Positions 3,733-64,000 of a stretch of DNA of 64,000 nucleotides are shown here, piece after piece. Positions within the stretch are counted from its first letter, which is position 1. Each line of letters begins with the position of its first letter. The notes under the pieces were generated by a model. That model was not told the origin of the DNA, ran no database searches, and was given only the letters and a program-made list of their open reading frames with translations. The translations under genes and the position numbers were made by a program. The stretch is from assembly GCF_988243305.1 (NCBI RefSeq), contig NZ_OZ547136.1; one strand, written 5' to 3'.

Positions 3733-4094
3733 ACATCCCGGTTTCTTCCACCATCGCACCGGAAAAGCAACTATGAGGGTAACCCTGCGTCTGTCAGCAC
3801 AGTAAAACCCGGTGTGCATCGTTTTTGATTATTCCCGCACACTCACGCAGAAGGAATTCCCCGTCGGGCTACGGTCATGGTTAATGCGGGAATACGGCGA
3901 CGATACAGCGCAGCTAAAAGGGTAATGGACAGAAAGAGCGGTTTATTTCATTCCACAGGATTCTGAGTGTCCCCAACTTCCTCCAATAGTCTGAGCGTAC
4001 ACCTATATAGTTTTAATTTTCATCAATCCATTTAACTATCGTTTAATTGTTGTCACATAGGATTCCGCCGTTTTTAACAATGCAGGATAATAAG

Positions 4095-4881: not shown

Positions 4882-5375
4882 TGCTGACCCCACAAACAGA
4901 TTTCACGCTCAATCTCACGACGAGTCATGAGACCTTTCCATTGCTTACCGCCAGCATATGTCCAGCGACGTAGCTGATCACATGCGCCTTTGATATCGCC
5001 CTGGTTTATTTTGCGAAGAAGCGTCGATGTTCTGAAATTGCCAGCGCCCACGTTGTAAACGAACGAGTAAAGAGCGCCGCGCGTTGTTTCCGGTATATCA
5101 ACTTTGATGTACGGGTTAATTTGTCTGGCGACCGTGGCAAGGTCTTTATTCAGGAGGGCTTTGCATTCTGCTTTGGTATACGTTTTACCGAGCATGATGT
5201 CTTTTCCTGTATGCCCGTGACATACAGTCCATACACCAACAATATCTTTGTATGGTATGTAGCTGACACCTTCCAGACCATCGTTACCACTTGGGCCAGT
5301 AATTAACACTGATGCTATAGCAATTGCTCCGCCACCAATAGCAGCAGCAACGGCTTTTCGTAATGATGGAGGCAT
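4878..5375 (-). CDS. R: SAR endolysin (P21 R / RrrD-type lysozyme)
   Basis: The 165-aa ORF has a Gly/Ala-rich N-terminal signal-anchor-release segment ([18 protein letters not shown]) followed by a T4-lysozyme-like core. Confidence 0.9.
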
Positions 5376-5590
5376 TATTCACCTCTCGCAGCCTTGCGCT
5401 TATCTTCTTTAATCTTGAAATAAAGGTTTGTCAGGTACGTCAGCAGGCCAAATACCAGGCTACCCAGCACACCTATTGCTGCCCACTGTGAGGGCGTGAC
5501 TTTATCGAGCAGCTGTAAAAACCAGTAGCCAGCACTGCCTGCGGAGGTGCCGTAGGCAATGCCTGTTGAAATTTTGTCCATGGATTTCAT
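5375..5590 (-). CDS. S: Pinholin, S21/EssD type (dual-start motif MKSM)
   Basis: I trimmed the start to [71 protein letters not shown] (71 aa). It has two TM segments and lies directly upstream of the endolysin. Confidence 0.85.
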
Positions 5591-5841
5591 AGCCTCACCT
5601 CCGCACGGAACGGATGGCATAGTTATTATGTGTAGGCTTTCAGACACATCAATCAGAGCCTTAATTGATATATATGCTGGAGACGATGCAATATAAAAAG
5701 CTCGCCATAGCGAGCTAATAAAATGTATTTCTCTGATATTATGTTTATTTGTATTAGCTCAGACTTGACATCACAGGTTTCGTATATAGAACATCATCAA
5801 ATCTGTCAGTTTGCTATGAATGAGATATAGTAATTGAAGAG

Positions 5842-13002: not shown

Positions 13003-13695
13003 ATGCTTACCCGTGAAAATATGCTTAATGGCACATTTGTCAGGGTGCATGAAGCGCTGCTCCCGGCGAATATGCTCTGGGACGCTGAAAAAATACGCGC
13101 ATCAATGAACTCTACTCTGGAGGAGCGCCCGACGGGTGCTCCTTTCTGGATATTTGCCTACGGGTCATTGATGTGGAATCCCGTGCTGGCAATTGAAGAA
13201 ATGCAACGGGCCCGTCTGAAAGGATGGCAGCGCAGTTTCTGCATTCGTTTGATATCCGGACGAGCGACTCCTGATGTCCCCGGCAGGATGTTATCGCTCG
13301 ACGAAGGTGGAATTACCGAAGGTATTGCGTTCAGACTGCCGGAATCGACTCTTATTAATGAGCTGGAAATTGTCTGGACGCGCGAGATGATAACCGGTCT
13401 TTACCGTCCGGTCTGGGCAGACGTTTCGCTAGGAAACGGTGAGGAAATTCAGGCGCTGGCTTTCGTATCAGACAGACTGCATCCGCATTATGAACAGGAC
13501 AATCTTACAGCGACCGTAGCGTTGAGCATCGCATCTGCCCGTGGAGACATTGGCACGAATGCAGATTATGTATGGAAACTGCAGGCCACTCTGGGTGCGT
13601 TGGGAATACGGGATGATTACGTGAGTGAACTGGCCCTTGCTCTGCATGAGGCTCCCTGTAACGATAAACTTCATCAGCGAGGCGCTTCACTATGA
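13003..13695 (+). CDS. ChaC-family gamma-glutamylcyclotransferase
   Basis: It carries FWIFAYGSLMWNP...PGRMLSL..GG...G.AFRL...REM motifs, as in E. coli ChaC. Confidence 0.8.
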   Translation: MLTRENMLNGTFVRVHEALLPANMLWDAEKIRASMNSTLEERPTGAPFWIFAYGSLMWNPVLAIEEMQRARLKGWQRSFCIRLISGRATPDVPGRMLSLDEGGITEGIAFRLPESTLINELEIVWTREMITGLYRPVWADVSLGNGEEIQALAFVSDRLHPHYEQDNLTATVALSIASARGDIGTNADYVWKLQATLGALGIRDDYVSELALALHEAPCNDKLHQRGASL

Positions 13696-14703: not shown

Positions 14704-15996
14704 CTATGGTTTTTTATTAGAACCTTCGCCACTAAATAAATTATAATAAATTGATTTTATTAGATATCTGTCAGAATCTATATGGTCAGCACGAGTAGCA
14801 TGCTCTAATGTTTCAAATGCTAGGGTTTGTGCGGCTTCAGCAAAAATTCCAGGCCAACCCTTACTCAGCATCGACAGTCCTTTAAGTACCCTTATCTGAA
14901 TTTCCCTCATACTGGCACCATCGCGCGCAACAGGTGAGAAAAAGTCTTCAAGTAGATCGTTATTCTGAAGTGGTGCAACATGTACAGAAGGATATTTCAC
15001 TTCTATTTCATCAGATTTATTCTGCGCGTAAGCGGAAAGTATACGTACACCTCTGCCAATGACATCAATGGCGGTTCCAGGATCGTTCACTGCGGGGGAA
15101 AGGGCTCGGCAGGCTATTTCGGCCATGACGCTAAGACAAAATCGGGGGTCCTGAGCAAATGAACGTACATCCGAGACAATAATCGTCTCAAGTAAATCGG
15201 TGCTGATTGATGACTCCTGGCCCTGACTCAGGTACAAAACTGGCGTGGACGGATGTATGAAACTGCCCGGCTGCGCCACGAGGTATACATGACGGGGATC
15301 ATTGGTCAGCAGCTTGCTGAGTTTCACCATATCAACATATTCAACATAGCCAATCTTTTTCGGATAAACTGCAACCGTTCCTTTCGGCTGTTCATTGTTC
15401 TCAAGCCATGGATATCCGCCGAGACAGGGATTTCTTGCTCTCGCAATAAATGTTTCGATGGCCGCCTGTTCTACTTTTGCCGTTGTCTCACCAACCCTCC
15501 CCAGAGAGGTCAAATGCTGTATCCAGCGAAGCAATGTGATGAGGATTAAGGCAATGACAACCAGTGTTACAATGAATAAAATGACTCTCCCCCTTTCTCC
15601 ATAAGCTCCCATATTGAGGGCAATAATCCCTACCAGACTGAAGAGAAAAGAACCGATGAAGGTGGCCAGTACATTTTGTGTGGTGACGTCTTCAACAACT
15701 AAACGAGTAGCTCTGGGAGTCACATTAGTAGTGGCTGAACCGTAGGCTGTGACCATGATGCTCAGCGAAAATGTGGTCACTGCCAGCATACTCGATGCCA
15801 GTATGTTCAGAATGTTATCGACTGCTTCCGCACCAACCTTCACGGAAACCGACTCAGGTATCATTGATTTAAAAAGAATTGATAAAAGGGCCGTTATTAT
15901 TGCGACAATTGCGAATAACGTTGCCCTGAACCATAGTTTTTTAAATGTCTGCTTCAGCATCCATTTCCAGCGTGAAATCATTCTGCATTCCCTCAT
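14704..15996 (-). CDS. DUF2254-family membrane protein
   Basis: It has four N-terminal TM helices followed by a soluble domain. The start could be the internal MISRWKW (15981). Confidence 0.7.
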   Translation of the reverse strand: MRECRMISRWKWMLKQTFKKLWFRATLFAIVAIITALLSILFKSMIPESVSVKVGAEAVDNILNILASSMLAVTTFSLSIMVTAYGSATTNVTPRATRLVVEDVTTQNVLATFIGSFLFSLVGIIALNMGAYGERGRVILFIVTLVVIALILITLLRWIQHLTSLGRVGETTAKVEQAAIETFIARARNPCLGGYPWLENNEQPKGTVAVYPKKIGYVEYVDMVKLSKLLTNDPRHVYLVAQPGSFIHPSTPVLYLSQGQESSISTDLLETIIVSDVRSFAQDPRFCLSVMAEIACRALSPAVNDPGTAIDVIGRGVRILSAYAQNKSDEIEVKYPSVHVAPLQNNDLLEDFFSPVARDGASMREIQIRVLKGLSMLSKGWPGIFAEAAQTLAFETLEHATRADHIDSDRYLIKSIYYNLFSGEGSNKKP

Positions 15997-55868: not shown

Positions 55869-56120
55869 AAAAAAAAGTCCTGGGGTTAAGTAAGGAACTC
55901 CAGGACGCGGCAAACACTCAACCGTTTTTCATAAGGAAATCAGCAATCGCACCGATCGTTTTCCCGCCTGGTAATGAATATTGGCGAGCACATTAACAGG
56001 CGGGAAAGTGGCCCCAGCGTCCTGGCACCACGGGCGAGAATAATCATGATTCAGTTCGGGTAAAATATGCCGATCCGCTCAGTGAACAACGTGGAACAAC
56101 CACGAACAAATAATTTACAA

Positions 56121-56150
56121 AAAATAACAAAAAGCCGGATTGCTCCGGCT
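56121..56150 (-). terminator. Intrinsic terminator (AGCCGGAGCAATCCGGCT + U-run)
   Basis: It has a 7-bp stem followed by TTTTTGTTATTTT on the minus strand, directly after the 74-aa ORF. It is a near-copy of the hairpin at 56490-56513. Confidence 0.7.
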
Positions 56151-56169
56151 GTATGTGCTGTATGGGTGC

Positions 56170-56394
56170 TCAGTCTCTGATCCCTTTCAGAAATTCTATC
56201 AATGCATCTGTCTGTTCAGGATTTACTGCCAGCATTTCACCGGATAGCGCGCAACGAACAAAACCATGATGATCCTTTTCAATCAGTGCGCCCGTCTCCA
56301 GGAATGCGCGGTAATCATTGATGCTCATCGTCTCCATGTTGTCAGCATGGTATTTATCACGCTGTTTTAATATCTCATCAAATTTCATCGGCAT
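56170..56394 (-). CDS. Hypothetical protein (74 aa)
   Basis: I trimmed the start to MPMKFDEILKQRDKYHADNMETMSINDYRAFLE.. It has a GAGG SD and is followed by its own terminator. Confidence 0.5.
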   Translation of the reverse strand: MPMKFDEILKQRDKYHADNMETMSINDYRAFLETGALIEKDHHGFVRCALSGEMLAVNPEQTDALIEFLKGIRD

Positions 56395-56489
56395 TGTTTT
56401 TTCCTCTGTTGTGTCTGTTTGTTTCAGATAGTAACTATGCCTGACCGTGACGAAAACCCGGTAATGCGCCATACCGTTTCAACTGGTGC

Positions 56490-56513
56490 AAAAAAAGCCG
56501 GATTTCTCCGGCT
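56490..56513 (-). terminator. Intrinsic terminator (AGCCGGAGAAATCCGGCT + U-run)
   Basis: This hairpin is a paralogue of the one at 56121-56150. It lies directly after the PerC-like ORF. Confidence 0.7.
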
Positions 56514-56563
56514 GTGTGATTAGCTGTCCTGGTAATTGCGCCATATTTCATCACCAGCACCAT

Positions 56564-56791
56564 CTATCCCCATTTCGGCATAAGTGCGATCGACTGCCTT
56601 TTCAGGTCTCCGTAATTATCCGGTGGCTCCGGTGGCCTCTGTGCCTTCCTGGAACATTCCAGCCGTCGCATCGTGATGTGATGCCGTTCCTTGTCTGTCT
56701 CCACCAGCAGCATGACTTCACCCCATCGCGCCGACGCCCTCCGGTAAAATCCTTTAGCCTCGAGTTCCTCCGCTATGCGGTCATGTACCAT
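56564..56791 (-). CDS. PerC/Pch-family transcriptional activator-like protein
   Basis: I trimmed the start to MVHDRIAEELEAKGFYRRASARWGEVMLLVETDKERHHITMRRLECSRKAQRP.. (75 aa). The LE.KG.YRRA..RW motif is the PerC family core as I recall it. Confidence 0.55.
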   Translation of the reverse strand: MVHDRIAEELEAKGFYRRASARWGEVMLLVETDKERHHITMRRLECSRKAQRPPEPPDNYGDLKRQSIALMPKWG

Positions 56792-56801
56792 CCTCACCCC
56801 C

Positions 56802-57212
56802 TCAGAACGGAATACCGTCACCGTAAGGGTCATCGCCTCCCGCTGGTGGCTGATTACCCTGTGTGCCTGTGGTTTTGCGTCTGTTCCCGCCAGGACGTGC
56901 CGCACGGGCACTGATTACGCTGTCTGCAATAACCTGCCAGCCCTGCCGCGTTTCTCCGTTCTGTCCGGTCCACTGGCTTACCTGCATCGTGCCGGATACG
57001 CTGGCAACATCGCCTTTTTGATGTTTAGCCAGGAAGTCGGCCTGTTTGCCAAATGCGATGACCGATAACCATAACGTCGCCTGTCCGTCCTGTGCCTGGC
57101 TGCATGGCAAAGATACCGCCATACGCGCCAGCGTCATCGGTGTGCCCTTGCTGGTCTGTTTTACCTGCGGGTCGTCCACCAGCCGCCCGTAAGCGGCTAT
57201 CTGTGCCGTCAT
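56802..57212 (-). CDS. ssb: Single-stranded DNA-binding protein
   Basis: The 136-aa ORF has an OB-fold N-terminus (AAYGRLVDDPQVKQTSKGTPMTLARMAV), a Gly/Pro-rich linker and an acidic tail DDPYGDGIPF. Confidence 0.8.
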   Translation of the reverse strand: MTAQIAAYGRLVDDPQVKQTSKGTPMTLARMAVSLPCSQAQDGQATLWLSVIAFGKQADFLAKHQKGDVASVSGTMQVSQWTGQNGETRQGWQVIADSVISARAARPGGNRRKTTGTQGNQPPAGGDDPYGDGIPF

Positions 57213-57460
57213 AATTCCACCTCTCCGGTTTTAACGTTGATGGTTGTTACCTGTTCCGCTTCGGCAATCTCCCGTTCTGTCAGCGTGGCAAAGTTTGCCG
57301 CCGCCGTGGTCATGAATGCGCTTATCAGGTCGGGATGTTCCTTCGCGTATCCTTCCCGCGTGTGGCGGTCTATCGTTCTGATTGCCACCTTTAAAGCGTG
57401 CTCAGTCATGTCTAACGCTTTATATTTTGGCTCTGTTCTGTCTCTGCGTTTTTGGGTCAT
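57209..57460 (-). CDS. Hypothetical protein (83 aa)
   Basis: I trimmed the start to MTQKRRDRTEPKYKALDMTEHALKV.. with a GAGAGG SD. It overlaps the ssb start. Confidence 0.45.
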   Translation of the reverse strand: MTQKRRDRTEPKYKALDMTEHALKVAIRTIDRHTREGYAKEHPDLISAFMTTAAANFATLTEREIAEAEQVTTINVKTGEVEL

Positions 57461-57662
57461 TTCTCGCAACCTCTCACTTTTTCGCCTCACTTTTTCAAGC
57501 GTCTCACTTCGTCGCAGTTGGGATTTTCGGTTTTTCTATGTGTGTGTTTCATAAGTATTTTTTTACCCCTCACTTTTGAGGATGTATACAGGTCGAAAAG
57601 TGAGGGAGAGCGGGCTAATTTTGGCCCTCTTTCTATCCCCCTCGCTTTTGCTCCTCACTTTT
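57461..57662. repeat. ori: Replication-origin-like iteron field (CTCACTTTT x6-7, one inverted pair, AT-rich core)
   Basis: Iterons occur at 57473, 57486, 57503, 57569, 57596 (inverted), 57641 (variant) and 57654. The AT-rich stretch TTCATAAGTATTTTTTTAC lies immediately 3' of the rep gene. Confidence 0.7.
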
Positions 57663-59061
57663 ATAGCGGCGCTACATCATCCCCATCGATACGAATAACC
57701 CCATCTTTTTCCAGCTTGTACAGCCAGCGCCGGAAGTTTTTCATTTCATACCCCAGTTTTTTCATGTCATCACGTAACAGCGGGATCGTGCACTTGTCGC
57801 CGTTCTGTGTGCGTGAACGGATGCACCCCCATAGCGCGGTATGGTTTTCCGTCTTGTTCCCTGCCTCCTCGATGCGCTCCAGTTCAACAGGAGGGCGCGG
57901 ATCATCCACCACTACCAGCGACGTGATTAATTCACCGTCAGCGTCGGTAAAAAGCTCCACCACGCGTAAGTCATATGCGGCTTCTTTGAGTTCCTCCGCG
58001 TCCTTCATTTTGGTGCATGAGATAACCAGCGCTTCGCTTCCTGCGTCCTCCCTGCGTATCCGGTATTCAGCATCCAGCGAAGCACGAAATGCACTGGAAC
58101 CGCGCGCGCCTTTCGTCTCATCCTTGCCGGAATGGTGAACCACCAGCACCGTGGCCCCTGTGCGTCGTTTCAGTTCGTCACAACCACGGATAAACGCCCC
58201 CATATCACGGGAATCATTTTCATCATTCCCACCAAAGCAACGCGCCAGCGTATCCAGAATAATCATGCGTACAGGTTTACCCGTTTCCCGCTCCACCTGA
58301 CGGGCAGCGATAACCATTTCATCAACATCAAGCGGGGCAGCCGGAAAGATGGGGCGGTTTACCAGATACAGATTTTTCACCTGCTCATCGTGCACAACCT
58401 CCCAGGCTTTTACACGACGCGGAACACCTATACCGCCTTCACCAACCACATAGAGAACCGCACCATGTGCAACCCTGCGGCCTCCCCACTGGCGACCAGT
58501 GGCAACATGGCACGCCCACGATCCGGCAAGGAATGATTTATAGGACCCGCTAGCCCCGTATATGCTGCATAGCGATACCGCCGGAATAATCCCCTTAACC
58601 ACGTAATCCAGTTGCGTGTCGTATCCGGTAGATCCAACGCTCATCGGTAGCGTGGTTTTTCGCTGGTGGTTTTTTTCTTCCACCGGCTCTTTCCCGCGCA
58701 CCCGTTCCAGGTATTCGCGCCAGTTCTCCCGCATATGGCTGTGCATCCCTTCGGGGTAATAATTCGCATCAGTTACACCCGCCGCCGCCAGCTTGTGCGC
58801 AATGGCATTAATATTTGATGGCCTGATGTGGCCTGCCTTGTACAGCCGGACACAATAGCGCCCCTCGTCGATGATTCTCAGGTCTGCCAGTTCATCCAGT
58901 TGATCATCAGCCAGCACAACGGGAGGCACATTATCGCCAGCCAGTCGCCCGTCCTGTTCCTGCCACTGTTTCGCATGTGCCCAGGCATCACTACCCGCAA
59001 AAATAATGACTTCGGTCATCTTGTCGTAAGGCTGTTTTTTTAAGTTCGGTGCGCTTTTCAT
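57661..59061 (-). CDS. RepA/DnaB-like AAA_25 ATPase (satellite replication initiator-helicase)
   Basis: The 466-aa ORF has Walker A GASGSYKS, Walker B RMIILDTLAR and ..VLVVHHSGKDETKGARGSSAF.. Confidence 0.8.
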   Translation of the reverse strand: MKSAPNLKKQPYDKMTEVIIFAGSDAWAHAKQWQEQDGRLAGDNVPPVVLADDQLDELADLRIIDEGRYCVRLYKAGHIRPSNINAIAHKLAAAGVTDANYYPEGMHSHMRENWREYLERVRGKEPVEEKNHQRKTTLPMSVGSTGYDTQLDYVVKGIIPAVSLCSIYGASGSYKSFLAGSWACHVATGRQWGGRRVAHGAVLYVVGEGGIGVPRRVKAWEVVHDEQVKNLYLVNRPIFPAAPLDVDEMVIAARQVERETGKPVRMIILDTLARCFGGNDENDSRDMGAFIRGCDELKRRTGATVLVVHHSGKDETKGARGSSAFRASLDAEYRIRREDAGSEALVISCTKMKDAEELKEAAYDLRVVELFTDADGELITSLVVVDDPRPPVELERIEEAGNKTENHTALWGCIRSRTQNGDKCTIPLLRDDMKKLGYEMKNFRRWLYKLEKDGVIRIDGDDVAPL

Positions 59062-59357
59062 TTCTTGCCCCTGAATCCGTTAATCATGGTTTTCAGCTTC
59101 TGGATGTTTGCCCGTGCCCTGGCGTTGCTGGTGGGCACGTTATGCGGCGCGGTCTGTACCAGAGAAAAATCACGCCGGAACTGATAAACAGGCATCACGC
59201 AATCATATTCGTAACCTTCACGGCGGTAGGTTACGCGCCGTTCTTCCACGCCCTTAATCATTACCGTGCCGCCGTACTGGTCGCGGTAAATATCACCGCG
59301 CGTAAATTTAGGGTGAGTGTTGCCACTGGCAGTTAAGCCAGAATATTTAAGTTTCAT
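59058..59357 (-). CDS. Hypothetical protein (99 aa)
   Basis: The ORF belongs to the tightly packed early operon. Confidence 0.5.
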   Translation of the reverse strand: MKLKYSGLTASGNTHPKFTRGDIYRDQYGGTVMIKGVEERRVTYRREGYEYDCVMPVYQFRRDFSLVQTAPHNVPTSNARARANIQKLKTMINGFRGKK

Positions 59358-59362
59358 TATTT

Positions 59363-59596
59363 TTATTCTCCGGTGTGCTGTTCTTTATATCTGTCGTGCA
59401 ATAGATCTATTTCTTGCAGTTCCATTATTACAGGCTCAAGAAGCGTTATTAATGCCGTGGCAATTCTTGATTTTTGTTTGTCGCGTTCATTGTCGCCAAG
59501 TGTTTCAAGCCATATGCGCAATATTTCCAGCATGTTTTCACTGTGAGAAAGTGCAAGAAATACGCGGTCTATTGTTTCGTGGTAAATATCACGCAT
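59363..59596 (-). CDS. Hypothetical protein (77 aa)
   Basis: The ORF belongs to the tightly packed early operon. Confidence 0.45.
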   Translation of the reverse strand: MRDIYHETIDRVFLALSHSENMLEILRIWLETLGDNERDKQKSRIATALITLLEPVIMELQEIDLLHDRYKEQHTGE

Positions 59597-59597
59597 A

Positions 59598-59819
59598 TTA
59601 ATCCCCGTCCGTCGTTTTTCTTAAAATAACCTCTGTCACGAAATCAGCATAATCGGCGGCGATATTCAGTACATCAAGCCCCGTTGATTTATATTCTCTC
59701 GTGGAAAGTAAGAAAAAAGCCGCTCTAATAAGTTCTGGCATTGACGAAAGCGCATCAGCCGCATCATCAGGAACGCCGGAAAATTCCTGTTTCAGGGAAT
59801 TAAAACGATCATCACGCAT
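59598..59819 (-). CDS. Hypothetical protein (73 aa)
   Basis: The ATG lies 2 nt after a G9 tract. Confidence 0.45.
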   Translation of the reverse strand: MRDDRFNSLKQEFSGVPDDAADALSSMPELIRAAFFLLSTREYKSTGLDVLNIAADYADFVTEVILRKTTDGD

Positions 59820-60034
59820 AACCCCCCCCCATTTTCACAATCAGCAACAAGAATATTTTTAGCGTCATTCAGCGACCGCGTTGCGATGTATCGGATACAT
59901 TCCAGGGCGAACTGTGTCCGGTCTTTCTGTTCTTCTCCCTGCGCAAGCTCTGCAGTGCATTCAATATCGATAAGCGCGTGCATCAGCGTAGTGAGCGCGG
60001 CGGCTGCTGCGTCCGGTGTGGTTTTATTGCACAT
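59792..60034 (-). CDS. Hypothetical protein (80 aa)
   Basis: I trimmed the start to MCNKTTPDAAAAALTTLMHALIDIE.. An AGGAGG SD lies 6 nt upstream. The 3' end runs through the G9 tract. Confidence 0.5.
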   Translation of the reverse strand: MCNKTTPDAAAAALTTLMHALIDIECTAELAQGEEQKDRTQFALECIRYIATRSLNDAKNILVADCENGGGLCVMIVLIP

Positions 60035-60224
60035 GGCACACCTCCTGACGAATACGGGCGGCGAATACAGCAACACAACCGGACGGGCAACGGCTACGCG
60101 CTTCGCGTTCCGTCCAGGCGGTTACGTGGATGATTTGAGATTCTCCGGCACTTAGTGCCAGAAAACGCCACACAAAGGCCGTTTGTGTGTGTATAAGGCG
60201 TGGTATATGATTTACGGCAACCAT
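60024..60224 (-). CDS. Icd-like (host cell-division inhibitor-like) small protein, first gene of the early operon
   Basis: It encodes MVAVNHIPRLIHTQTAFVWRFLALSAGESQIIHVTAWTEREARSRCPSGCVAVFAARIRQEVCHVQ (66 aa) with a GGAG SD. The W.F.A....EAR....FAAR pattern resembles P4-type Icd-like proteins as I recall them. Confidence 0.5.
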   Translation of the reverse strand: MVAVNHIPRLIHTQTAFVWRFLALSAGESQIIHVTAWTEREARSRCPSGCVAVFAARIRQEVCHVQ

Positions 60225-60286
60225 AACGGCTCCTAGTTTACGTTGTTGGTTAGACGCCCCGTATGTGTTCCCAGCACTGCGGGGCG

Positions 60287-60361
60287 TTGATTTTTGTGTA
60301 ATGGCAAGTACAATGGTAATTACCATGTAGGTATAGTAATGAAGGGTAATTACCATGTCAA
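60287..60361. promoter_or_regulatory. Overlapping opposed promoters plus two copies of the operator GGTAATTACCATGT
   Basis: The plus strand reads TTGATT(60287)-16-TACAAT(60309). The minus strand reads TTGACA(60361-60356)-17-TACTAT(60338-60333). The operators are at 60313-60326 (14-bp perfect palindrome) and 60345-60354. Confidence 0.6.
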
Positions 60362-60528
60362 CACCATTAGAAAAACGTTCGCCTCCATACCAAATGCGAT
60401 TACCGGAAGACTTCAGAGCGCAGCTAGAAGAAGCAGCTAAGGCCGATGGCGACACATCTTTAGCCACTTGGATTAAACGCGTTCTCCGCAAAGAATTACA
60501 GCAACGCGGCATAGAGCCAAAAGGTTGA
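60355..60528 (+). CDS. Arc/Mnt-type ribbon-helix-helix repressor (57 aa)
   Basis: I translated it by hand: MSTPLEKRSPPYQMRLPEDFRAQLEEAAKADGDTSLATWIKRVLRKELQQRGIEPKG. It has the classic RHH pattern. It is not in the ORF track. Confidence 0.7.
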   Translation: MSTPLEKRSPPYQMRLPEDFRAQLEEAAKADGDTSLATWIKRVLRKELQQRGIEPKG

Positions 60529-60549
60529 ATTTCAGAAGGAGATAAAATA

Positions 60550-60702
60550 ATGAACTGGCTGTTACATACCCTCCCAGGTCGCATTCTCATTGCACTAATT
60601 ATTTTATGGATTTTGTACCAATTCGGTTTTTTCGATTCGCTTTGGAAGCCTGACTGTTCCGTTAACCCTGGCGATGTACTGAAAGGCTGTAAAAATGGCT
60701 GA
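60550..60702 (+). CDS. Small single-TM protein (50 aa) co-transcribed with the RHH repressor
   Basis: An AAGGAG SD lies 8 nt upstream. It encodes MNWLLHTLPGRILIALIILWILYQFGFFDSLWKPDCSVNPGDVLKGCKNG and is followed by the hairpin CCCTCTTAAAGAGGG. Confidence 0.5.
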   Translation: MNWLLHTLPGRILIALIILWILYQFGFFDSLWKPDCSVNPGDVLKGCKNG

Positions 60703-61057
60703 TCAGGGTTACTCCCTGTAATGCCTTTAACTGGCCCTCTTAAAGAGGGTTGGTTATCTTCGCAGCTCTCTACGTTTTTCGTCGGAACCTCTGAACCTAA
60801 GCAGTGTTGATGTTCAGGAGAACCCGAATACTGTTCGTGTTCGTTGCTCGCCAATTCTCGCGTTTCGCGATAATCAAAATGATTCAATGGGTTGAGATGT
60901 CCGTACGTTAAACGTACGCGGTTAATTTGTACATGCGAATTTCGTCGGCTCAAATTCTGCGCAACCCTGCTTGAGTTATGCAAATAGCACGCGGCTAACT
61001 CACAAGGATTTGAGCGCCCCCAAACGGGGGAGCGCAAAATTTTAGGCATAAGACGCA

Positions 61058-61771
61058 TCAGCGAATCTCCAACACTGACGATGAAGTGATCAGGCTGGCG
61101 AACGCATCCATACGGCGGGCAACCTCACGCACCGCATCGCCTGGACTCATGTCATTACGCACCGCCTCATTAAAGGCCGCCTGTTCGATTTTCTGCATCA
61201 CTACCAACAGCCCCAATTGCTGTTCGTCTGCGGTACCGCGTTCACCATCAGACAAACCAGCCACGCGGTTTTCAGCGCGGGCCAGATTGATGTAATGGTG
61301 CCGTTGTGCGCCCAGAGCTTTTAATCTGTCGCGGCTTTCGTGATAGCCAGGCAGGTACTCACGGCGGATAGGTTCTGCGGCGCGGCGCTTAGTGAATGCC
61401 TTCGTAACATCCAGTTTGAACTGGTTAATACGCTCAGGATCACGCCCTCGGGTGATACGCAGCAGATAGTCGAGCTGCGGCTCATTCAGCAGATAACTAA
61501 TCTCAGGACGCCCACGCTTTCGGCCGGATTTTCCCGATTTCAAATCGGTTAATTCCTTGAGTGACTGACGAGGCAGTGATCCCAGCTCGCGCAATCTGCT
61601 CTGGTGCGATTTAATCGTCGCGCTTAAGCTTTCATGTTGTATTCCGGCTCGCTCTGAAATAACGCGGGAATCGATACGCGGCTCCGATTTGTGATTAATT
61701 AAAATATCGCTCTGGCTGGCTTCAGGGCGAACGAATCCCCGCCCACGTTCTGGCGTATATTCAATCTTCAT
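61058..61771 (-). CDS. Putative phage regulatory protein (Rha/antirepressor-like N-terminal region), 237 aa
   Basis: ..SEPRIDSRVISERAGIQHESLSATIKSHQSRLRELG.. and ..YLLNEPQLDYLL.. resemble Rha-type regulators. The assignment is tentative. Confidence 0.4.
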   Translation of the reverse strand: MKIEYTPERGRGFVRPEASQSDILINHKSEPRIDSRVISERAGIQHESLSATIKSHQSRLRELGSLPRQSLKELTDLKSGKSGRKRGRPEISYLLNEPQLDYLLRITRGRDPERINQFKLDVTKAFTKRRAAEPIRREYLPGYHESRDRLKALGAQRHHYINLARAENRVAGLSDGERGTADEQQLGLLVVMQKIEQAAFNEAVRNDMSPGDAVREVARRMDAFASLITSSSVLEIR

Positions 61772-61828
61772 GGTTATAGCTCTGTGTTCAGATGATTGAT
61801 GTGTGGCGGCTGCGTGCCGCCAGCGTGA

Positions 61829-62017
61829 TTAATGAACTGCCTTGCAGCTATCCTTCCAGGCCAGAACCTCGGATAAAGACCAGCCAACGGAACGACCGCC
61901 AAGTTTACGACGTGATGGGAATTGTCCGGCCTTTTCCAGGCGGTAGCGACACGTACGGCTAAGGCCGGTTAGTTTTTCGCATTCTTTTTCACGTATAAAC
62001 CGATCAGTGCTTAACAC
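61829..62017 (-). CDS. alpA: AlpA-family transcriptional regulator / excision factor
   Basis: The 62-aa ORF reads ..IREKECEKLTGLSRTCRYRLEKAGQFPSRRKLGGRSVGWSLSEVLAW.. Confidence 0.85.
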   Translation of the reverse strand: MLSTDRFIREKECEKLTGLSRTCRYRLEKAGQFPSRRKLGGRSVGWSLSEVLAWKDSCKAVH

Positions 62018-62167
62018 TATTGCCCCCTTTCGTTTCTTAAAGAGTCATCAGGTGTCTTATTGTGTCGTATTGTTCCCGCTAGAGTGATAAATGGCAAATA
62101 CTGAGGATGTATGATTTACAGAAAATGAAACAGTAAGAATAAAATCTTTTAAATTCATGTTAATACA

Positions 62168-62199
62168 AAGGCATAAAATATTGTTTCATGCCTTTTTTC
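62168..62199. terminator. Hairpin AAGGCAT-13 nt-ATGCCTT with a plus-strand T-run, between int and alpA
   Basis: I read it directly. Orientation is ambiguous: it may be the int terminator on the minus strand or the end of a short plus-strand RNA. Confidence 0.35.
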
Positions 62200-62381
62200 T
62201 CGCTCTTTAAAGAGTGATTCGCTAGTGTATAAAAAACCAGTAACGCATTAAAAATCAGCTACTTATAAATCCGTACGCTTTTTCGCCTCTTGTTCGTAGT
62301 TGTTCCACATTGTTGCTCATTGTTGCACGTTGTATCTGTTCGCATATACAGTATGCGCATACTGAAAAAACACGAAAAAAA

Positions 62382-63599
62382 TTATTTTCTTCTGGCTACT
62401 GGTAGCGTGGTTACGTTTTCATGTGTTCCCGCCAGTATCCCTAACCGCTCCGTCCACATATCCAGCGCATTGCGTTTAGCATCCAGATAACGGGAATGAT
62501 TATAAACTCGCTGCATTCCTGGCATCTGGTGGCCTGTAAGCTGCTCCACGACATGCGGATCAACGCCTAAATCGTTCAGCATGGTTGTAAAGGTGCGCCG
62601 GATGTCATGCAGTGACCAGTGAGGATGATTAAGCCTCCTGTGCGCTAATCTTCCATACTGCGATACGCTGGCCTCCTGTTTCACTTCCCCCAGCAATAAG
62701 CCCGTGTGCCTGTTCTGCTCCACCAGCTGCGTGACGAACGGCAGGATCGCTTCCGGTATGGGCCGGAATATTGCGACCTTCGTTTTGCTGTGCTCCTTCG
62801 GAACGGTCCATAGCATTTCCGTAAAATCCCACTCCCCGATCTCCGATAACCTCAGTTCTACCGTTCTGGCTCCGAAGACAATCAGGAGGCGGATTAACGC
62901 GACGTAGTAAGGGGAGAATATTTTTTTGTCCAGTGCCTGCAATAATTCGCCAAGTTCTTTGTTACTTAAGACACGTTCGCTTATATCCGGTTTTTTCCCA
63001 ACGTCCGCCACGTTCAGATCGTCCAGAACGTTGCTGATTGCATAGCGCCGCCTACGGCAGAACTTAAGCGCCTGTTTGCACGCCTGTAGCACGAATCCGG
63101 CAGTAACAGGCGTTCGCTTTGCCACCTGGTCAAAACAGGCCAGCCAGTGCCGTAGCTCGCATTTATCCAGCGGCATAGCACCAATCTGCTGTATTACGTG
63201 ATTATTAAGTCGCCTTTTCAGGGCGATATAATCCACGCGGTTTTCCTTTACGTAATACTCAAGCCAGTAGGTGAGCGCATCGCCAACCGTTACGGGCTTT
63301 AACGCTTCCTGTACGGTGTAATTCATCTCATGACGTGGATTTTTCCCCTCAGCCAGCCATGTGCGACACTGTGCGGCTTTTTCCCTGGCTGCTTTCAGGC
63401 TCAGATCAGGATAACTTCCCAGCTTAATGCGTTCGGGTCGTGTCTCCCTTCCCGTTCCGGCCCTGTATGTGAAATACCAGGTCAATTTCCCTGATGTTAA
63501 ATATTTCACGCTCAGGTTTCCGCCATCACTATAAAACGTGTTTTTCTCCGCTGGCTTACCATGAAGTTTCCTTAGCAAGGTATCGCTCAGTTTGTTCAT
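62382..63599 (-). CDS. int: P4-type tyrosine integrase
   Basis: The ATG start gives MNKLSDTLLRKLHGKPAEKNTFYSDGGNLSVKY.. (DUF4102-type arm-binding N-terminus). The catalytic region reads ..HDIRRTFTTML..LTGHQMPGMQRVYNH. The track ORF starts 4 codons earlier at a GTG. Confidence 0.9.
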   Translation of the reverse strand: MNKLSDTLLRKLHGKPAEKNTFYSDGGNLSVKYLTSGKLTWYFTYRAGTGRETRPERIKLGSYPDLSLKAAREKAAQCRTWLAEGKNPRHEMNYTVQEALKPVTVGDALTYWLEYYVKENRVDYIALKRRLNNHVIQQIGAMPLDKCELRHWLACFDQVAKRTPVTAGFVLQACKQALKFCRRRRYAISNVLDDLNVADVGKKPDISERVLSNKELGELLQALDKKIFSPYYVALIRLLIVFGARTVELRLSEIGEWDFTEMLWTVPKEHSKTKVAIFRPIPEAILPFVTQLVEQNRHTGLLLGEVKQEASVSQYGRLAHRRLNHPHWSLHDIRRTFTTMLNDLGVDPHVVEQLTGHQMPGMQRVYNHSRYLDAKRNALDMWTERLGILAGTHENVTTLPVARRK

Positions 63600-63635
63600 T
63601 GCTCTGCTCACGTTTTACCCCCTCTTTACGAAAAA

Positions 63636-63705
63636 GTGACTACACCAGTGACTACACCGATCGTTGCACAAAGGGCTACAACGTGAAACAAGCTGGAACA
63701 AGGAA
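63636..63705. repeat. Right-arm repeat block: GTGACTACACC-AGTGACTACACC followed by ..ACAACGTGAAACAAGCTGGAACAA
   Basis: This is the partner of the block at 48541-48599. It lies 25-95 bp upstream of the int start. Confidence 0.7.
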
Positions 63706-63786
63706 AATCACAAATCTGTTGATAATCAAAAACATAATGCACAGCCTGAAACATTATGAAACAGCAAAAAACACTAAATGATAAAA

Positions 63787-63795
63787 TGCTGTTAT
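63787..63795. repeat. attR core / target duplication TGCTGTTAT
   Basis: See the partner repeat at 48458-48466. Confidence 0.85.
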
Positions 63796-64000
63796 TCTTA
63801 ACCCGCTGGTGCAACACATGGTCCGCTGGCGAGTGCCGCGTGTACTGGCGGTGTCGATTTTGATGACCATCATCGTGATGGCGATGGTGTTGCTGTTAGC
63901 TTATCTGGGTTCCGCACTCAACGAGTTGACGCGGACGTTACCGCAATATCGCAACTCTATTATGACGCCGCTGCAAGCGCTTGAACCGTTGTTGCAACGC
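63787..64000 (+). pseudogene. tqsA: tqsA 3' portion resuming at the right junction (continues past window end)
   Basis: GCTGTTATTCTTAACCCGCTGGTGCAACACATGGTCCGCTGG encodes [42 protein letters not shown].., in register with the 5' fragment. Confidence 0.9.

Follow-up and report, generated by a model that had tools for sequence, protein, structure and literature searches.

The subject of this analysis is a 64,000-nucleotide (nt) stretch of contig NZ_OZ547136.1 (assembly GCF_988243305.1), referred to as the window, and all coordinates count from its position 1. Between alpA and an early operon lies a compact interval which is best explained as a control cassette. The phage satellite carrying it in Escherichia coli is about 15 kb long and of the capsid-forming type of the phage-inducible chromosomal islands (cf-PICI). 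The cassette comprises two opposed predicted promoters, a pair of putative operators, a gene for a 57-amino-acid (aa) Arc/Mnt-like ribbon-helix-helix protein on the plus strand (60355-60528), here called the repressor gene, and the determinants of a predicted cis-antisense RNA. The early operon is encoded on the minus strand. Its first gene (60024-60224) codes for an Icd-like protein of 66 aa (NF033153 phage_ICD_like, E=5.7e-18), and the annotation of E. coli relatives likewise gives an Icd-like protein for this gene.

The predicted repressor promoter, P(+), consists of TTGATT at 60287-60292, a 16-nt spacer and TACAAT at 60309-60314 on the plus strand. The predicted early promoter, P(-), is read from the minus strand, with TTGACA at 60361..60356, a 17-nt spacer and TACTAT at 60338..60333. 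Start sites were predicted from the positions of the hexamers and fall at ~60321 for P(+) and ~60326 for P(-). Both promoters had been proposed in an earlier description made from the letters alone (the sequence-only reading), and their hexamers and coordinates were found as claimed when re-read from the sequence. In a consensus scan, P(-) was the top promoter-like match within 59000-62500, with 10/12 consensus matches. The region contains six promoter-like matches compared to 5.0 expected from shuffled sequences, i.e. their count is not above chance, and hence the case for the promoters rests on the conservation of their positions across species and not on the scan. The -35 hexamer of P(-) overlaps codons 1-3 of the repressor gene, and the -35 hexamer of P(+) overlaps the last base of a terminator hairpin and its T tract (see below).

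The 14-mer GGTAATTACCATGT is found at 60315-60328 and at 60345-60358, 30 bp apart from start to start. Operator O1 (60313-60326) is a perfect 14-bp palindrome, ATGGTAATTACCAT, holding the first copy of the 14-mer and covering both predicted start sites. Operator O2 (60345-60358) is the second copy, with the palindromic core GGTAATTACC at 60345-60354; it fills the spacer of P(-) and overlaps the ATG of the repressor gene at 60355, which the -35 hexamer of P(-) overlaps as well. All of these elements, i.e. the two copies and their distance, the palindrome over both starts and the position of the second copy on the ATG, had been described correctly before. The exact 10-bp core GGTAATTACC occurs only twice in the whole 64 kb, both times at the switch. 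A candidate degenerate operator O3 (60300-60316), reported by a repeat finder with a 76% match to the repeat, overlaps the -10 hexamer of P(+).

For comparison, 69 loci encoding relatives of the repressor were fetched together with records from E. coli and Pasteurella, and all were anchored on the ATG of the repressor gene (individual loci are cited by L numbers where needed). The same layout was present in about 50 distinct related loci from Enterobacterales, Pasteurellaceae and Aeromonadales, in which the paired operators and the opposed overlapping promoters keep their positions, which supports this part of the sequence-only reading. A perfect TTGACA which overlaps the ATG-TCA-A of the repressor gene heads the top-ranking minus-strand site in 42 of 49 distinct loci, and a spacer of 17-18 nt and a -10 hexamer of the type TAnnnT come after it. 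Codon 2 of the repressor gene is Ser in these loci and is TCA every time, which points to a constraint on the DNA itself. For P(+), the best plus-strand -10 hexamer ends at -41/-42, adjoining O1, and is accompanied by a TTGnTT -35 hexamer in 28/49 distinct loci. Nearly all related loci have the O1 palindrome at -42/-41 from the ATG, with the core that is also found in O2 of that locus; O2 lies at -11..0 in about 40/48 distinct loci, and the distance between both operators is mostly 30-31 bp. Several loci (L003, L004, L015, L017, L020) carry a clean TGTAATTACA palindrome 12 bp upstream of O1, which contains a TACAAT -10 hexamer.

The operator core varies between lineages, yet it is identical in both copies of any one locus and tracks the N-terminal strand of the repressor. 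The core TGGTAATTACCA is found with the strand ..RSPQYQMRL, TTGTAATTACAA with ..KTDQYQ(I/L)RL, GGTATATACC with ..SPQFPMRL and GTGTCATTACAC with NPPFQFRL. A change from M to I/L in the strand together with a change from G to T in the operator is seen in Enterobacterales and in Pasteurellaceae. That two sites separated by 30 bp change in concert is, among the computational results, the strongest argument for a single protein that would read both operators, and the linkage between core and strand points to the adjacent 57-aa protein as the probable reader. The palindromes could instead be bound by AlpA, by a Rha/Bro-like protein or by a host protein, while the 57-aa protein acts on some other target. 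Regulators of the AlpA and Bro families are indeed encoded nearby and binding of the 57-aa protein at this place is a prediction. However, alpA was detected in 18 related loci and a Rha-like gene in one only, and these genes are variable, whereas in every locus O2 is physically joined to the 57-aa gene, whose product co-varies with the core in its DNA-reading strand. Binding by another protein is thus regarded as very improbable.

Homologues of the 57-aa protein form 93 clusters, nearly all of 55-58 aa, and originate from Enterobacterales, Pasteurellaceae, Aeromonas, Oceanimonas and Gilliamella. Their alignment has 17 invariant columns and a conserved D-G-D-x-S/T turn. Among the profiles, phrog_228 ‘Arc-like repressor’ was matched with E=1.5e-6, and the NCBIfam YlcI/YnfO profile reached 18.7 bits, which is below its cut-off of 30. 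Using hhalign, P22 Arc was aligned with E=5.7e-4 and Mnt with E=1e-3, in both cases with the strand in register. The AlphaFold model of the monomer (confidence score pLDDT 76) has helices at residues 18-31 and 36-50 and an extended N-terminus, and in a Foldseek search of this model against the PDB, nearly all of the 50 matches listed are ribbon-helix-helix proteins, Arc, AmrZ, CopG, ParG and NikR among them. Sequence searches of the PDB returned designed helical repeats on top, which are compositional matches and uninformative. The protein agrees with the Arc/Mnt-type topology of an N-terminal strand, a helix, a G-x-S/T/N turn and a second helix within about 45-55 residues. In this class, a dimer contacts the major groove of a palindromic or repeated operator through its paired strands, and the co-variation of core and strand would indirectly support such binding for the 57-aa protein. 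Within the plus frame of the repressor gene, changes fall mostly at third positions, and 38,423 synonymous differences compare to 30,637 non-synonymous ones; the antisense frame over the same gene has 25,387 synonymous and 44,534 non-synonymous differences. Judged by these sequence comparisons, the 57-aa open reading frame (ORF) is a real gene under purifying selection for an Arc/Mnt-like ribbon-helix-helix protein, for which operator binding is predicted. The gene was found at the place indicated by the sequence-only reading, and evidence from homologues, profiles, fold and coding signature agrees with the assignment made there.

It had also been claimed that ORF callers miss this gene, and the NCBI pipeline indeed omits it in the three E. 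coli relatives checked (L001, 5356-5529; L002, 5716-5889; L075, around 13100-13280). There, the opposite strand is annotated instead, either as an Icd-like/‘ash family’ pseudogene or as a 263-aa hypothetical protein. The omission is probably a systematic mis-annotation and constitutes an annotation problem, as an antisense ORF is called in place of a regulator.

In the window, the corresponding minus-strand frame is open for 344 codons (60024-61058), starting with an ATG that overlaps the stop codon of the Rha-like gene upstream. It runs antisense through the sequence behind the repressor gene, the repressor gene itself and the switch and joins the Icd-like gene in the same frame. Comparable long frames start at or beside the stop codon of the upstream alpA/Rha gene in L001 (5025-6029), L002 (5025-6323) and L075 (13002-13793); in L001 and L002 the frame enters the Icd-like gene, and in L075 the long annotated ORF stops just upstream of it. 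Four E. coli variants, in which the sequence behind the repressor gene is annotated differently, have the frame open across this gene and the switch. According to one explanation, this 344-aa ORF would be the true gene and the 57-aa ORF spurious, for which the openness of the frame in the window and in the four variants may be cited as well as the choice of the NCBI pipeline in L001, L002 and L075. As a general explanation, this is largely refuted: stop codons inside the repressor gene break the minus frame of 32 of 64 distinct sequences, non-synonymous changes exceed synonymous ones, and the amino-acid entropy is 1.28 bits compared to 0.90 bits for the plus frame. Moreover, only the C-terminal 48 residues of the long frame match any family, whereas both length and sequence of the plus-frame protein are maintained over three orders. 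The long ORF is therefore given hardly any probability of being the true gene. It may serve ribosome transit and not protein coding. By analogy with eta of phage P4, such transit may exist beside the repressor gene in the E. coli lineage, and the frame is treated as a lineage-specific feature.

Upstream of P(+), a hairpin at 60254-60287 is followed by a T-rich tract at 60288-60296, and a hairpin with such a tract is present in all related loci. Covariation was assessed in a plus-strand alignment with a hand-specified structure, and slid and shuffled versions served as controls. Compensatory changes were found in 11/13 pairs; 89.7% of the cells were paired compared to 30-50% in the slid controls, and none of 500 shuffles reached the observed values. 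In 36/42 distinct sequences, RNA of the plus strand forms the more stable hairpin, and the numbers of G.U pairs are 75 versus 24 in favor of this strand. Due to this stability and this bias, it is assigned as the intrinsic terminator of a plus-strand transcript, which is antisense to the early leader.

A sigma-70 weight-matrix scan of the plus strand upstream of the terminator in 34 loci provided a candidate promoter for this transcript. In the window, the predicted antisense promoter P(as) is composed of TTGTGT at 60183-60188, 17 nt and TATGAT at 60206-60211, with a predicted start at ~60219, and is located inside codons 5-14 of the Icd-like ORF. The -10 hexamer of the best site ends exactly 11 nt before CAT, the complement of the start codon, in 20/34 loci, and a site at this place is among the top three in 29/34. 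The hexamers found are TATGAT, TAAACT, TACAAT, TACACT, TATCAT, TAGACT and TATAAT. Information peaks at T(-16) with 2.0, A(-15) with 1.8, T(-11) with 1.8 and G(-18) with 1.2 bits, compared to 0.0-0.3 bits at most neighboring positions, and the residues encoded at the -10 hexamer vary (NHI, KFT, HCT, NYT and others).

Conserved promoter signature, terminator and fold together predict a cis-antisense RNA of ~77 nt (60219-60296, plus strand), complementary to the early leader, its Shine-Dalgarno sequence (CTCC, 60230-60233) and the start codon (CAT, 60222-60224). The predicted RNA folds into two stem-loops with -33.5 kcal/mol (z=-4.6). In stem-loop 1, the 5’ end, which holds the complement of the start codon, pairs with the conserved linker GTTGTGGTTAG, and the anti-Shine-Dalgarno sequence CUCC is exposed in the loop; stem-loop 2 is the terminator. 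A single compensatory change in stem-loop 1 was seen in L051, where AGTCAT/ATGATT replaces AGCCAT/GTGGTT. The early mRNA forms a weak mirror-image hairpin with the Shine-Dalgarno sequence in its loop in at least 29/41 loci when sequences are folded individually. In the early leader (60225-60250 in the window, minus strand), this hairpin has 5 bp, for instance CGUUA/UAACG, CAUUA/UAAUG or UCUUA/UAAGA. The complementary loops of leader and predicted antisense RNA suggest that pairing might start by a kissing-loop contact.

The sequence-only reading had presented the switch as self-contained. This does not hold, because a covarying plus-strand terminator within the interval and a conserved antisense promoter predict a cis-antisense RNA in addition to promoters and operators. 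Some candidates for the RNA elements were rejected. One was a pseudoknot in which the loop of the hairpin would pair with the conserved linker. A 7-bp match was present in L003 and, judged by eye, not reproduced in other loci; the folding model gives a better explanation of the linker by placing it in the 3’ half of antisense stem-loop 1. A C4/CI-type immunity RNA in the leader was discarded, since the window has no Rfam match to such an RNA and the hairpin is selected on the opposite strand. Rfam gave no match to the predicted antisense RNA either (E<=1, 56000-64000), and a 14-nt stretch of its sequence was without a match in a full-text literature search. Identity with Esr41, a small RNA of enterohemorrhagic E. 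coli, is excluded, as Esr41 is encoded in the SpLE1 island, which is a different element.

The cassette is kept in front of differing first early genes, which code for an Icd-like protein, a protein of ~115 aa, a primase or a SymE-like protein. In Limnobaculum (L059, 4631-4852, minus strand) the first early ORF is SymE/AbrB-like, and in Xenorhabdus (L008, 2432-4867, minus strand) it encodes an 812-aa primase. Since unrelated ORFs follow the same leader and antisense cassette, the cassette appears to be portable between early modules.

The satellite extends over ~48.5-63.7 kb of the window and has its genes on the minus strand. Pfam matches identify an integrase (62382-63611, minus strand), AlpA (61829-62017, minus strand) and a Rha-like protein (61058-61771, minus strand); this module (61058-63611, minus strand) has the same orientation as the early operon and is convergent with the repressor gene. 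In the related loci, alpA is on the strand convergent with the repressor gene in 18/18 cases and int in 28/30, where detected. This conserved convergent int/alpA module upstream was missing from the parts listed in the sequence-only reading. Beyond the Icd-like ORF, the minus strand carries several small ORFs, DUF4222, a RepA/AAA_25 helicase (57661-59061, minus strand, Pfam AAA_25), a single-stranded DNA-binding protein (SSB) and then a capsid module, for which the ORF layout was found at 49-56 kb. In E. coli relatives with 98% identity, the genes of this module are annotated as portal, HK97 protease, major capsid protein, head-tail connector, HNH protein and small and large terminase. Thus, the features of a cf-PICI are present: a P4-type integrase, AlpA, a replication module and own capsid, portal, protease and terminase genes within ~15 kb, tail and lysis genes being absent.

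Part of the switch region (query 60000-60524) was matched in 1,246 of 5,426 complete E. coli genomes, and the similarity to E. coli genomes ends where the 57-aa gene ends. In the E. coli relatives L001 and L075, the satellite sits in tqsA, a gene for an autoinducer-2 (AI-2) transporter, which is split into pseudogene fragments. A Pasteurella ‘phage’, Pmp8 (L073, OR544139), is a record of 15.3 kb deposited as a phage which resembles a cf-PICI satellite and has the same cassette at 4934-5183; it encodes an integrase, a primase, an excisionase/AlpA and a terminase and has few structural genes. The gene beside its cassette is labelled ‘transcriptional repressor’, apparently through similarity to an obsolete ‘cI’ ORF of P4. 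Two copies of the cassette about 1.2 kb apart (about 3775-3943 and about 5067-5159) were observed in Photorhabdus (L036-L040), one with a full and the other with a truncated repressor gene and each with its own hairpin and leader; these may be tandem or decayed satellites.

Downstream of the repressor gene, a 50-aa hydrophobic ORF without family matches (60550-60702, plus strand) is retained as a candidate gene only. The sequence-only reading had combined the 57-aa protein and a 50-aa transmembrane protein into one unit. Both ORFs exist, but the second is not conserved: it is in none of the ~70 related loci, and only two matching clusters were found among 5.8 billion in a protein database. The gene 3’ of the repressor gene differs in almost every lineage or there is none and, on this comparison of loci, the position is a variable cargo slot. 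In the loci L003-L071, in which the slot lies at about 5175-5700, it contains a MazE/AbrB-like protein in L019 and a second ribbon-helix-helix paralogue in L006; proteins of 136-167 aa are encoded there in L007, L054, L059 and L060. The slot resembles a hotspot for accessory or defense cargo that would be expressed from P(+). In the window, a 27-nt imperfect inverted repeat (60771-97/60890-916) and a terminator-like hairpin on the plus strand (60902-60918) were noticed between the 50-aa ORF and the Rha-like gene; they may mark the end of the repressor transcript where it meets convergent transcription.

The contents of this slot bear on the question whether the gene belongs to an autoregulated accessory or toxin-antitoxin-like module, in which case the overlap with the early promoter would hardly matter for regulation. 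Some database sources name the homologues HicB-family antitoxins, and the MazE/AbrB-like gene of L019, the paralogue of L006 and the small hydrophobic ORF in the window would fit. However, a partner conserved downstream is absent, including the 50-aa ORF, which none of the related loci has, and in 42/49 loci a perfect -35 hexamer of the opposing promoter overlaps O2 and the ATG. A module of this sort is considered improbable, and its form as a type II toxin-antitoxin system was rejected, since no conserved gene for a cognate toxin follows directly downstream.

By analogy, the closest known system is immI of phage P22, whose parts list is closely matched. Small ribbon-helix-helix repressors with the same strand motif are found in both (PQFNLRWP in Arc, PHFNFRMP in Mnt and PPYQMRLP here), and two opposed promoters share ~30 bp of DNA, with operators that lie within the promoters or cover them. 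According to the P22 record, Pant (14793-14821, plus strand) and Pmnt (14798-14826, minus strand) occupy the same DNA, Oarc and Omnt are within and beside them, and sar RNA (15021-15090, minus strand) is made from a promoter lying in the beginning of ant and ends with a hairpin terminator. A cis-antisense RNA of ~70 nt such as sar, with a promoter in the 5’ end of the regulated gene, a course over the ribosome-binding site and a hairpin terminator, is what is predicted for the satellite. The two systems also differ. The P22 promoters are back-to-back, whereas those of the satellite are face-to-face, so that each transcript crosses the other promoter; the satellite has one repressor gene and P22 two; and the operators of the satellite repeat one palindrome at a distance of about 30 bp. 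Furthermore, the regulated operon of the satellite starts with an Icd-like (or other) gene and replication genes, in contrast to the antirepressor gene ant in P22, and the element carrying the system is a satellite. Nucleotide similarity to P22 or other phages was not found; a search of a phage collection returned only one satellite-like record. The claim that control here is distinct from the CI/Cro or Stl type is correct in so far as the cassette differs from both, but a precedent exists in P22 immI with Mnt/Arc and sar RNA.

Resemblance to the immunity system of P4 and the C4 systems of P1, P7 and N15 is seen in a small Icd/Kil-like ORF which is translated first and in control of the ribosome-binding site at the RNA level, the latter being predicted for the satellite. 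As in P4, transcripts from an upstream promoter linked to alpA/vis would read through. The long ORF of the E. coli lineage starts upstream of an internal promoter and continues in frame into a small ORF, which recalls eta and kil of P4 (PMC10111431). For eta, the same article summarizes that translation of the long ORF from an upstream late promoter renders read-through insensitive to immunity (PMC10111431). Unlike the hairpin of the satellite, which is selected on the opposite strand, P4 CI and P1 C4 are RNAs of the sense strand that arise by processing of the leader. In a control on P4, Rfam found C4, isrK and c4-a1b1, none of which was found in 56000-64000 of the window. A protein repressor at PLE does not exist in P4, to which the satellite adds a ribbon-helix-helix protein and its putative operators.

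Phages of the P2/186 type have convergent lytic and maintenance promoters (Pe/Pc, pR/pL), and mutual interference is part of their switch. The satellite shares the face-to-face arrangement of the promoters with these phages. Tens of bp separate the starts in the phages, which use helix-turn-helix repressors (C/CI, Cox/Apl); in the satellite, the predicted starts are ~5 bp apart and occlusion would be direct.

The published Gram-negative PICIs and cf-PICIs have the same order of int, alpA, a zone with Bro genes, replication and late genes (PMC10111431). They differ in that their published control is positive and acts via AlpA, a helper-induced activator which is experimentally known as the master regulator of Gram-negative PICIs (PMC11773190). 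The one paper found to list the small gene itself gives it no more than an accessory place, as a ‘YlcI/YnfO family protein’ or ‘HicB’ (PMC13612085). A description of the operators, promoters and antisense RNA of the cassette was not found in the satellite literature searched, the coverage of which was incomplete.

Taking the cassette as a whole, we consider it rather probable that an Arc/Mnt-like repressor, mutually occluding promoters and an antisense RNA silence the early operon until a helper acts. During quiescence, the 57-aa repressor would be produced from the moderate P(+) and bind to O1 and O2, about three helical turns apart. Bound to O2 in the spacer of P(-) and to O1 over both starts, it would switch off the operon from the Icd-like gene to RepA and limit its own synthesis. 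Because the predicted starts of the opposing promoters are only ~5 bp apart, RNA polymerase should occupy one of them at a time. Repression of P(-) would then also free P(+) and, after loss of the repressor, the stronger P(-) would exclude P(+). The antisense RNA, ending at the hairpin which adjoins P(+), would block translation of leaky early transcripts, and this block would probably be polar on the genes downstream. For induction, AlpA-driven transcripts triggered by the helper would cross the repressor gene in antisense direction and the operators, enter the early operon and thereby flip the switch.

An alternative view is that the ribbon-helix-helix protein is an Arc/Cro-like regulator for shut-off or timing after induction, with quiescence resulting mainly from the antisense RNA and the lack of AlpA. 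The position of O1 on the start of the protein's own promoter would give negative autoregulation, and P22 Arc is known to have exactly such a shut-off role at Pant/Pmnt. Furthermore, the master regulator established by experiment for Gram-negative PICIs is AlpA and not a repressor (PMC11773190). However, the gene opposes the early operon, and early transcription or read-through from upstream would silence the repressor instead of expressing it. In addition, the gene heads a variable cargo slot of a kind usually expressed in quiescence. On balance, a role limited to the time after induction is deemed unlikely.

Several points speak against a repressor-based switch as set out above. Concerning the protein, the match to Pfam Arc (E=0.038) is sub-threshold with 14.3 bits compared to a cut-off of 20.4, the structure model is a monomer in which no strand is formed, and each of the Foldseek matches in the PDB individually has E>1. 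Concerning the promoters, P(as) has 8/12 consensus matches in the window, below the threshold of the consensus scan, P(+) and P(as) are modest promoters, and P(+) is less clear in the TGTAATTACA operator class of loci. The operators O1 and O2 are 34-35 bp apart in a few loci, which weakens a strict argument for cooperativity on the same face of the helix. The co-variation of operator and protein represents few independent evolutionary events, and operator and gene are physically linked. What the analysis shows are the sequence features, their conservation, the covariation of the operators and of the hairpin and the fold class of the protein; from these, we infer binding of the protein to the operators, production of the antisense RNA, the direction of regulation and the route of induction; the read-through from AlpA-driven transcription is one that we purely infer. 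Repression and the bistability proposed in the sequence-only reading are likewise predictions, and since O1 lies over the start of P(+), the repressor should also repress itself, so that bistability is not automatic.

Control of Gram-negative satellites is now described almost wholly via AlpA, and the silence of their replication and packaging genes without a helper is not explained in the literature searched. A wider reading, which is offered tentatively and appears doubtful at present, sees in the cassette the repressor system that is still missing for Gram-negative PICIs, cf-PICIs and related P4-type integrative satellites. Its three parts would form a portable module for use in front of unrelated replication modules, flipped by AlpA-driven convergent transcription through the repressor gene and not by inactivation of the repressor, and the classes of operator and strand would be immunity groups. 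If this is true, the cassette between alpA and the early operon would supply the missing half of satellite control and would define immunity groups among co-resident satellites. With about 180 bp and a 57-aa gene, it would also be a very small natural switch acting by direct occlusion.

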